Source: Octopus vulgaris | Taxonomy: Eukaryota | Length of the DNA: 64,000 nucleotides | Direction of reading: 5' to 3' | NCBI GenBank assembly: GCA_951406725.2 | Contig: OX597816.1 | Coordinates: forward strand, 113,274,001 to 113,338,000 | Shown here: piece by piece, positions 42,401 through 45,400 of the stretch | Numbering within the stretch: the stretch's first letter is position 1 | Layout: every line of letters starts with the position of its first letter | Notes under the pieces: generated by a model | Seen by the model: only the letters and a program-made list of their open reading frames with translations | What the model was told of the DNA's origin: nothing | The model's database searches: none | Program-made: the position numbers and the translations under genes

Positions 42401-45400
42401 TAATACCATCACATTATGATGAAATGGCACTGTGAAAGTTTCAAATCATTAATAGACTAAGAAATTCAAAAACATTATTGTTCCCTACTAAAAATAAAGG
42501 ATTGAAGAAATATGAAACATTTTCAATGGAAATGATCAAATTTGAATATAGTCATACTTTAATATAACACACACACACACATACAAAAGATTATTTAATG
42601 TCTATTTTTTAAAGAATAGGGCACAATAATCAAATTGTCTTTTTAAAATTTAATATCTTTGTTTTTTTTATATAAAACTGTAATCCTAACTGAAATATCT
42701 TTTTTGATTTTGGCATCAACCATTTAAAGTTGTTAAAATGCTGGGTAGAATGCCTTGTGGTATTTGTCCTGATACACAGCACTCTGAGTTCAAATTCCAC
42801 CAAGATTAACTTTACTGTTTATTCTCTGAGTTCACAAAAAAAAACCCCAGAGAAGTATCAGTGAAATGGTAAAATTGTAAGAGAATCAGATCAGATGCTT
42901 TACATTGTTTCTTTTGGCTCTTTGAGTTCTGAATTGAAATTAGTCTGTATCTTACTTAGTAAATTGATTTAATCCATCAACCAGTCTAACACCACCACAT
43001 GGCACCTTTAGTAGAATCTACTATGTTGCAAGTATTCTTGAAGGTCTCTGATATGAGGTTATCTTATTCCCACTCTCCCATTCCTCTTAGAGGCTCTATG
43101 AAAGAGCATCATCACTGCTGTCCCTCCTGGCTAAAAAATATTTTTTTAATTTTAAATACAGTGTAAGTAATAAACATGTTTATAATAACAAATCTTCAAA
43201 TTTTCTTCTTTTTAACTATCATTAGCCATTCCTATCTTCTTCCATTTTTTAATTTCATTTTTGTATTCTCAAAAATTTACTAATATTTTAACACTGTATA
43301 TTGATATTAATTGACATTGAACAAATTGCATTTAAACAATGTATATTGATGTCAGTTGACATCTATGTATATTGATGTCAATTAATAAAAAGTTAACCAA
43401 CAAGAATTCTTTTGTTCAATATTTAAGGTATGGTCACAGCTTGATGGCATTTCGCTTGTCAAGAATTTGTAGCAATCAAGATCCTGAAAAGTCCCTGGAA
43501 CTTGGTCATCACATCCTGAAAGCCAACATATATAAAAACCTGTGTCGCCAGTCACAGTTTTCATCGCGAGTTTTTCTTGCCTATTGGATGTGCCTTTGCT
43601 CTGACAACCTCAATGCTGCTTTAGTCACTCAACGGAATCTTTTCTCCCCAAATGTTAAGGTAACTAACATTATTTTAACATAAAAATGATTTTTTAAAAA
43701 TAATGTCAATATAATTTTATTATTACACTTACTAAGGCTGGCAGAATCATTAGCATGCTTGGCAAAATACTCACTGGTATTTTGTATTTGATGCTCGTCA
43801 TAGAATGATGCTAGATGTAAAGGTGTTTGCCCATTTTTGTCATCATGATGTAAATTAGAACTGGGTTCAAATTCCTCCAAGGCTGACTTTGCTTTCTCCT
43901 TTTGGGGTCAATAAGATAAGTATCAGTTGAACACTGAGGTAGATATAATTGGCTTACCATGGCCTTGTGCAAAAATTTGAACCCATTATTACATTTAATT
44001 CTTTATACTTATAGATAGAATATAAAGAAATTAAACATGCAGATGAAAACATCTTTGTCCTACAACTCTCTACAACCTTATAAAAGAAACATTTTGCTGG
44101 AGTAAAATAAGACATGATAGTCTTGTTGATCTATTTGATCCAAGCTGATCTGGGACGAAACAACAATGTCATCAAGTAAAGGAATTTTAGGAAATTTCTG
44201 TAGTAAAGAATGTGAAGAGTGATACAAAATATTTGTGAATAGTTGTGTCACTATACTAAAGACAGAAGGGAGATATGATAAACTGGTGATTGGTGAGTTT
44301 ACTGGTATGTCTTCAAGAAACTTACTAGCTTATTACAGCTAGAATTGTTAGAATGCAGGTGAATTTTATGATTGTGGGTCGCAGTTGGTAATGTTTACCA
44401 AAATCAAATTTTAAACCATTATAGTTAAAATGTTTTAATAAGAGAATATTTAATATTTGTTTTTACCTGTCTGTTTCTTTTTTATATTGGGAAAAGAAAA
44501 CTTTGGTTCATTTTTTTTTTTTTTTATCCTTTATTTAGGTTAGCCGCTTACTTATATTAGCCGGAGCTAATCCCAATGCCAAGAGTAACTTTCTCAATCA
44601 AGCCCCAATATTGTGTGTGAGTGCACGAGAAGGCTTCCTTGAAATGGTGTCATCATTGTTAGAATTTTCAGCCTATGTGGATGCTGTATGTGAAGATGGG
44701 ATGACTGCCTTATGTCACGCAGCTGCTAATGGACATCTGGATGTTATTAAATTATTGTGTTCGAAAAAAGCAAATGTAAGTAATTATCTTCATATTTCAA
44801 CAGACATCATTCAAAACAACAAAATATCTTTGCAATGATCTCAAATTCTATTTCAGCTTCTGACAGCATGATAAAAGGAAATATATGTATATATATATAT
44901 ATATATAAATTATAATAACTTCTTTCATTTTATCTAACATATGACAGATGGAGTAAGATTAATCTCTTGAATCATTTTTGAATTTACTGAATTTGATAGT
45001 AATTTATCTGTGCTCAAAGTCTCTTCAAAAAGTTTTCTTTACTAGACTTTACTGCAACCAGTTAAAGTATTTATAATCTTTTCAAAACAACCTGTGCTTC
45101 CTTATATAAAACTGATCCAAACTAACAGCATTTTCCCTGGTACAGAGTATTAGAGAGGCCTTTATGATGCATCTGGAATTTTCTAAATAGAGAAACAAAA
45201 ATATAAATGAAAATATATTTAGAAACAGTGTAAAAATATATACATACAGAAGACAAAATAAACTGAATACTTCTTGGTAAAATACTCTCAATATTGACCC
45301 CTTTTCTTGCTAATACTTTTGATACTAATCTACTTGAGACTACCCTCTTGTTTTTATATATATATATATAAATCTGCATGTTTAAACTGTTCATATTTAA

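Follow-up and report, generated by a model that had tools for sequence, protein, structure and literature searches.

Within the window analysed here, a stretch of 64,000 nucleotides of Octopus vulgaris DNA, a gene carries an antisense copy of the end of one of its own exons in an upstream intron, which raises the question whether the copy guides RNA editing of that exon or is simply a leftover of DNA repair. The insert is likely harmless debris and not an RNA-editing guide. More specifically, with a probability of roughly three in four, the inverted scrap of TANC exon 12 is a templated-insertion repair scar that drifts as unselected intron DNA. If it is indeed neutral it matters little on its own, and simply adds to the stock of raw material from which exon-targeting duplexes could form.

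The insert and its host gene

The host gene is the Octopus orthologue of TANC/rolling pebbles and lies on the + strand. Its large exon gives 100% matches to O. bimaculoides proteins that bear the names TANC1/TANC2, and the peptide of exon 12 agrees fully with the named proteins of O. vulgaris and of O. sinensis, with a single residue different in O. bimaculoides. Exon numbers count the exons found inside the window, the long isoforms having further exons upstream. On this count, tblastn and spliced contigs place exon 7 at 43428..43659 (with splice sites as additional evidence), exon 8 at 44539..44775, exon 9 at 45735..45911, exon 10 at 47051..47138 and exon 11 at 48546..48803, and the 176-nt exon 12 was placed at 49629..49804 by tblastn and homolog alignment (all + strand).

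The insert is 76 nt long (43786..43861), is antisense to the TANC mRNA (i.e. on the − strand) and lies in intron 7 (879 nt), 126 nt past the exon 7 donor. It matches the reverse complement of 49728-49803 without gaps, at 69 of 76 positions (blastn within the window, E 5.5e-23), with identity and coordinates exactly as the earlier note had them. The donor segment (49728..49803, + strand) codes for ankyrin-repeat sequence (26 protein letters) and stops, as was also claimed, one nucleotide short of the exon 12 donor: the match ends at 49803, the exon at 49804, and the GT follows at 49805. The two arms are separated by 5,867 nt and, with exons 7-12 joined in spliced contigs, they do belong to one pre-mRNA at the 5.9 kb spacing proposed. 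Of the seven substitutions relative to the donor four lie in 43792-43800, although this clustering within 9 nt is not significant (P = 0.077).

The insert is real and inherited, because a 165-nt DNA contig from a second, closely related organism (organism C, run X15) spans 43739-43903, and thereby both junctions, with one difference. This contig, together with arms that are 91% and not 100% identical, rules out an assembly artefact. A SINE subfamily or a paralogous ankyrin gene can be ruled out as the source as well, since a genome-wide search with 43760-43890 returned two matches, i.e. the query itself and exon 12, with no third copy, and the aligned SINE copies do not contain the insert.

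Anatomy and origin of the insert

The insert splits a SINE, the 5' part of which lies at 43737..43785 (+ strand, from alignment with other copies) and the 3' part at 43861..43990 (+ strand, from the same alignment and loose contig ends, the 3' end being approximate). When 60 near-full copies from 864 kb were aligned, with the majority line taken as consensus, the insert was found to take the place of 13 nt present in the other copies, which bears out the suggestion that a short central part of the SINE had been replaced. The host SINE differs from the consensus at 26 of 145 positions (18%), and the insert, at 9%, is about half as diverged from its donor. The C at 43861 is common to the insert and the SINE 3' part, which amounts to 1 nt of microhomology at the right junction, with none at the left, whether a genomic or an mRNA template is assumed; with 18% decay in the flanks, the junction as first formed may no longer be visible. 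An mRNA or cDNA template was considered since the copy stops just 1 nt short of an exon end. However, the left flank of the insert resembles neither exon 13 nor intron 12 and is accounted for by the SINE, so that a DNA template and an RNA template are indistinguishable.

The anatomy, the single donor in the whole genome and the nearness of that donor together back the templated insertion into the SINE that the earlier note had inferred. In the germ line, a break in the SINE, or a replication fork stalled there, would have been resolved in one template-switch or templated end-joining event: an end would have been extended on the exon 12 sequence 5.9 kb away, copying 76 nt, and the rejoining would have involved no more than 1 nt of overlap. 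Substitutions would have gathered afterwards, or some of them may have been made during error-prone synthesis.

PMC8421209 describes templated insertions with replacement that build up as variants in the germ line. The insert is like the MMBIR-type MMB-TI of that source in being a short piece of nearby sequence, copied in inverted orientation, that replaces a few bases and is inherited through the germ line, and like the four-point template-switch mutations in the available text of PMC5453318 in being an inverted nearby copy inserted with replacement. In contrast to MMB-TI, where the template lies within ~ 100 bp, the template of the insert lies 5.9 kb away, and compared to the cases in the available parts of both sources, the insert lacks clear microhomology and has the coding sequence of its own gene as donor. 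The absence of clear junction microhomology, the very stable duplex and the low power given by seven changes are among the points that speak against a neutral scar, and the scarcity of genome-unique inverted pairs nearby is another.

Several other repeats occur in this gene. Around nine head-to-tail copies of the host SINE family lie at 26800-29430, just upstream of exon 4; with inverted SINE partners at 32550-32760 this cluster flanks exons 4-5, and the duplexes between the two are near -200 kcal/mol. A 66-nt tandem repeat of 5.4 copies (54515-54866) lies in an intronic repeat element, with similar text near 24030-24390. A Pfam scan of three repeat-like ORFs returned no family.

Age and distribution

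All seven differences between the arms are common to the window and organism C. Five of the seven fall in codons for residues (D, V, G, P) that do not vary among the named proteins of O. vulgaris, O. sinensis and O. bimaculoides, and these changes therefore arose in the insert. An insert-bearing contig is listed for organism C and none for D, E or F, a blank that carries no information, since D, which matches the window without a difference over 43908-44500, has holes over exon 7 as well. A contig of organism F (run X20) aligns to 43861-44052 with 15 differences in 192 positions and stops exactly at the junction, leaving seven unaligned letters, too short for a bridge, and the place where it ends gives a weak hint that F may lack the insert. 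Similarly, position 49762 is A in both the window exon and the insert and G in the more distant organisms E and F; these alleles, unpolarised without an outgroup, would fit an insertion that took place once the lineage had parted from E and F, and hint weakly at it. If the insert does postdate the split from F, its seven changes exceed the 2.2-3.0 expected (P 0.007-0.03), an excess that, under that dating, would point to copying errors, or to pairing that was lost rather than retained.

The insert had been called newly born, and of this description the restriction to a lineage is plausible, whereas actual newness sits poorly with the sharing of all seven differences with organism C and with the 26 of 145 differences of the host SINE. 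Apart from this, the X20 contig of organism F continues past 44052 with 506 letters unlike the window, which suggests that a separate insertion may have occurred in intron 7 of organism F at that position.

Duplex strength and retention of pairing

The duplex between insert and exon is predicted at -112.8 kcal/mol, where a perfect copy would give -139.7. As was claimed, three of the seven differences become G-U pairs (at 49733, 49777 and 49791) and four are true mismatches, so that about 72 of the 76 positions could pair. In a neutral simulation (1,500 rounds of seven random changes, drawn from the mutation spectrum of regional SINE decay), the mean number of G-U pairs was 2.25, versus 3 observed (P of at least 3 = 0.41), and the energy was -112.4 ± 5.2 kcal/mol, versus the -112.8 observed (P = 0.47). 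As both simulated values match the observed ones, the wobble pairs need no selection to explain them, and retention of pairing beyond neutral decay is not supported, at the low power that seven changes allow.

The exon core pairs far more strongly with the insert (-72.7 kcal/mol) than with the best other partner in 47000-52500 (-22.3 kcal/mol). In a list of 25 inverted matches from the gene span, the insert/exon duplex comes tenth in predicted energy. Those above it are a local hairpin or pairings between repeats, and judging by the exon map none of the other listed matches reaches into coding sequence. Of the 24 adenosines in the exon arm, all but one (an A:G) are opposite U, and there is no A:C mismatch; A49761, the adenosine proposed as edit site, is paired and stands in a C-A-A context. 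Edited sites in coleoids tend to be unpaired or A-C, with a G preferred downstream (PMC8891338, in the text available). The best editing reporters are predicted in the intronic arm, namely A43800, which is opposite C in the modelled duplex, and the UAG at 43802.

The strongest predicted dsRNA in the TANC pre-mRNA lies elsewhere, in the intron after exon 3, where a 284-nt hairpin element (20507-20790) has 129-nt arms that are 83% complementary (-167.8 kcal/mol); it is bounded by TA runs and is MITE-like.

The insert as a proposed editing-complementary sequence

The codon at the centre of the editing proposal is a CAA (Gln) at 49760..49762 (+ strand), i.e. residue 1737 of the O. vulgaris protein P0122. 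In an alignment of 115 of the top 120 homologs (those aligning to exon 12 at >38% identity), this position is R in 103, K in six, Q in four, L in one and S in one. The statement that editing of A49761 (Q>R) would restore the usual residue is thus even stronger than when first made. Every cephalopod-type sequence that covers the site has Q, including Argonauta and eight Logan proteins that are ~ 84% identical. Since Q is far older than the insert, the protein must have worked with Q, or with another route of editing, without the insert.

These data bear directly on the possibility that the insert is a selected, lineage-specific editing complementary sequence (ECS) that recodes exon 12, notably by Q1737R, and so restores the ancestral ankyrin-repeat arginine. 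With R in 103 of the 115 homologs and Q in all aligned cephalopod sequences, such an edit would count as restorative as PMC6881472 uses the term, and if organism F lacks the insert, as hinted, species with and without it could be compared. Nevertheless, this explanation is very unlikely. The Q common to Argonauta and the Logan TANC proteins long predates the insert, and all eight Logan proteins covering the site keep it, even though A>G-type changes separate nearly identical members at other positions. Furthermore, the simulation gave no excess of retained pairs, no majority edit is listed in two sequencing runs, and a near-perfect duplex of 76 bp would presumably attract editing at many adenosines instead of one selected site, with D1733 (D in 114 of 115 homologs) and H1731 (H in 102 of 115) exposed to recoding too. 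The editing-complementary function claimed for the insert is therefore not supported, given that its pairs are retained as in neutral decay, that the arms are 5.9 kb and four exons apart, and that no majority A>G is listed at A49761. Equally improbable is the full history in which one repair event in the vulgaris-group lineage would have created a long-range upstream ECS that re-creates the Arg1737 lost in cephalopod TANC. Were a selected ECS confirmed, the origin of a recoding site through an exon-templated inverted insertion would have been dated, and the relatives without the insert would serve as natural controls. If editing did depend on the insert, this would provide a directly testable route for the birth of coleoid recoding sites and a clean restorative case, arising long after the residue was lost.

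Comparison with known ECSs (available text of PMC10404624) gives a mixed picture. The insert is, like the downstream ECS of the GluA2 Q/R site and the upstream-intron ECS that BLCAP uses, intronic, complementary to an exon and part of the same pre-mRNA, and it shares its upstream position with BLCAP; unlike these two, which lie in an adjacent intron and direct demonstrated editing, it is four exons away, decays in a neutral-like manner and is a candidate for pairing only. With Alu-type inverted repeats (PMC4066801) and PCCR (PMC8052449), each in the parts available, it shares a long, near-perfect potential duplex within one pre-mRNA. However, one arm of the insert duplex is unique coding sequence, unlike in the Alu-type repeats, and PCCR are defined by conservation and compensatory changes, whereas the insert duplex is a predicted pairing. 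The insert is best filed with the templated insertions, and its likeness to an ECS is in pairing potential only.

No TANC editing sites were found in the supplements covered, those of PMC8382921, PMC9068888 and PMC6881472, the main coleoid site tables being outside this search. Searches of the accessible literature returned no paper that joins TANC2, RNA editing and octopus, and none on an editing complementary sequence originating by inverted exon duplication. With Gln in all cephalopod sequences aligned, the codon at 49760-49762 of TANC is in itself a candidate site for restorative editing, whether the insert is relevant or not. The near-identical Logan TANC proteins P0003, P0135, P0136, P0146 and P0147 differ only by changes that are compatible with A>G, i.e. 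K769R, M1033V and N1989D (P0122 numbering) and two N-terminal residues; these changes are possibly recoding elsewhere in TANC, or SNPs.

Evidence from RNA contigs

The RNA evidence consists of assembled contigs from runs of guessed RNA status and unspecified tissue, and four of the 14 runs guessed to be RNA were compared with 43380-48860, a span chosen such that exon 12 cross-maps onto the insert. The result rests on runs X1 and X2, as X4 and X6 were listed without an mRNA contig; RNA contigs across the insert are likewise absent from the listing, and neither blank is counted as evidence. Both the X1 contig (2,329 nt, depth 35.4) and the X2 contig (2,533 nt, depth 67.2) carry exons 7-11 with no other letters and with GT..AG joints, followed by exon 12, which appears as a joint 43861/48803 on opposite strands. 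An A>G at 43828, the position matching A49761, is not listed in either contig, and neither is any majority A>G at the positions matching ~ 49759-49772 in the two runs, where contigs give the majority form only and hide minor edits; differences at the neighbouring 43825 and 43827 were reportable in the DNA-contig comparison. In these two samples, the majority mRNA is normally spliced over exons 7-12 and is not majority-edited at A49761.

The same contigs speak to the possible effect on splicing that had been raised. The arms flank exons 8-11, and one of them stops a single nucleotide short of where exon 12 ends, so the duplex could act mainly on splicing, either by looping out exons 8-11 (as a skip or a 760-nt circle) or by masking the exon 12 donor; conserved long-range pairings are, in the available text of PMC8052449, enriched outside circRNAs, which was counted in favour of such a role. 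Exons 8-11 sum to 760 nt, which is not a multiple of three, and skipping either these or the 176 nt of exon 12 would therefore shift the frame. Both mRNA contigs carry exons 8-12 in order, and no skip between exons and no back-splice is found among the 15 joints shown (three more were unseen). With exons 7-12 joined normally in the majority mRNA contigs of two runs, the proposed effect is not seen there, and a mainly splicing role is the least credible of the explanations considered.

A further explanation is that the duplex forms in a minority of neural transcripts and that ADAR edits both arms at a low level, as an unselected by-product. The pairing potential (72 of 76 positions, -112.8 kcal/mol) is in favour of this, and intron 7 contigs are present at a depth of 3.3-4.2, compared to 35-67 for the mRNA contigs, which means that some unspliced RNA may exist. 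In addition, editing in O. vulgaris is mostly in introns and 3' UTRs (PMC9699675, available part), and for conserved human long-range pairings the available text of PMC8052449 gives an editing enrichment that is independent of spread and rises sharply below -30 kcal/mol. In human Alu data, on the other hand, editability declines with distance as exp(-d/800 bp) and is lower for a partner in another exon or intron, such that distance and different gene segments cut editing to near baseline (PMC4066801, as far as available). The listed intronic contigs, which lie beside the insert and not on it, show 0 and 3 differences, none of which is A>G. Such incidental editing is thus unlikely, if less far-fetched than a selected guide. 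Under the repair-scar reading, intron 7, being transcribed first, is likely spliced out before exon 12 is made, because of which the arms probably seldom meet in the pre-mRNA; any editing of exon 12 via the duplex would thus be low and incidental.

How common are local inverted copies?

In the 864 kb around the window, 65 pairs of sequences occur exactly twice, ten of which are 1-10 kb apart, compared to 1.35 expected by random placement. Six of these ten are inverted, including the TANC insert pair. Six of the other nine were searched genome-wide (three direct pairs were left out), and three of the five other inverted pairs turned out to be dispersed repeats, which weakens the idea that local inverted duplicates are everywhere. 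The remaining two inverted pairs returned the query only, but their 77-78% partners were also missed, so that the sensitivity of this search is limited. The TANC insert pair is the only genome-unique inverted pair in the sample that is at least 85% identical at 3-10 kb (one of three). If the coding fraction of the genome is taken as near 1%, two inverted pairs per 0.86 Mb would correspond, very roughly, to ~ 50-100 exon-derived inverted scraps genome-wide.

A direct duplication was also encountered in this survey: two 172-nt sequences, L069:9079-9250 and G000:C3:112945981-112946151, lie 2.7 kb apart, are 92% identical and gave no further copy in the genome search, making this pair a second scar of local copying.
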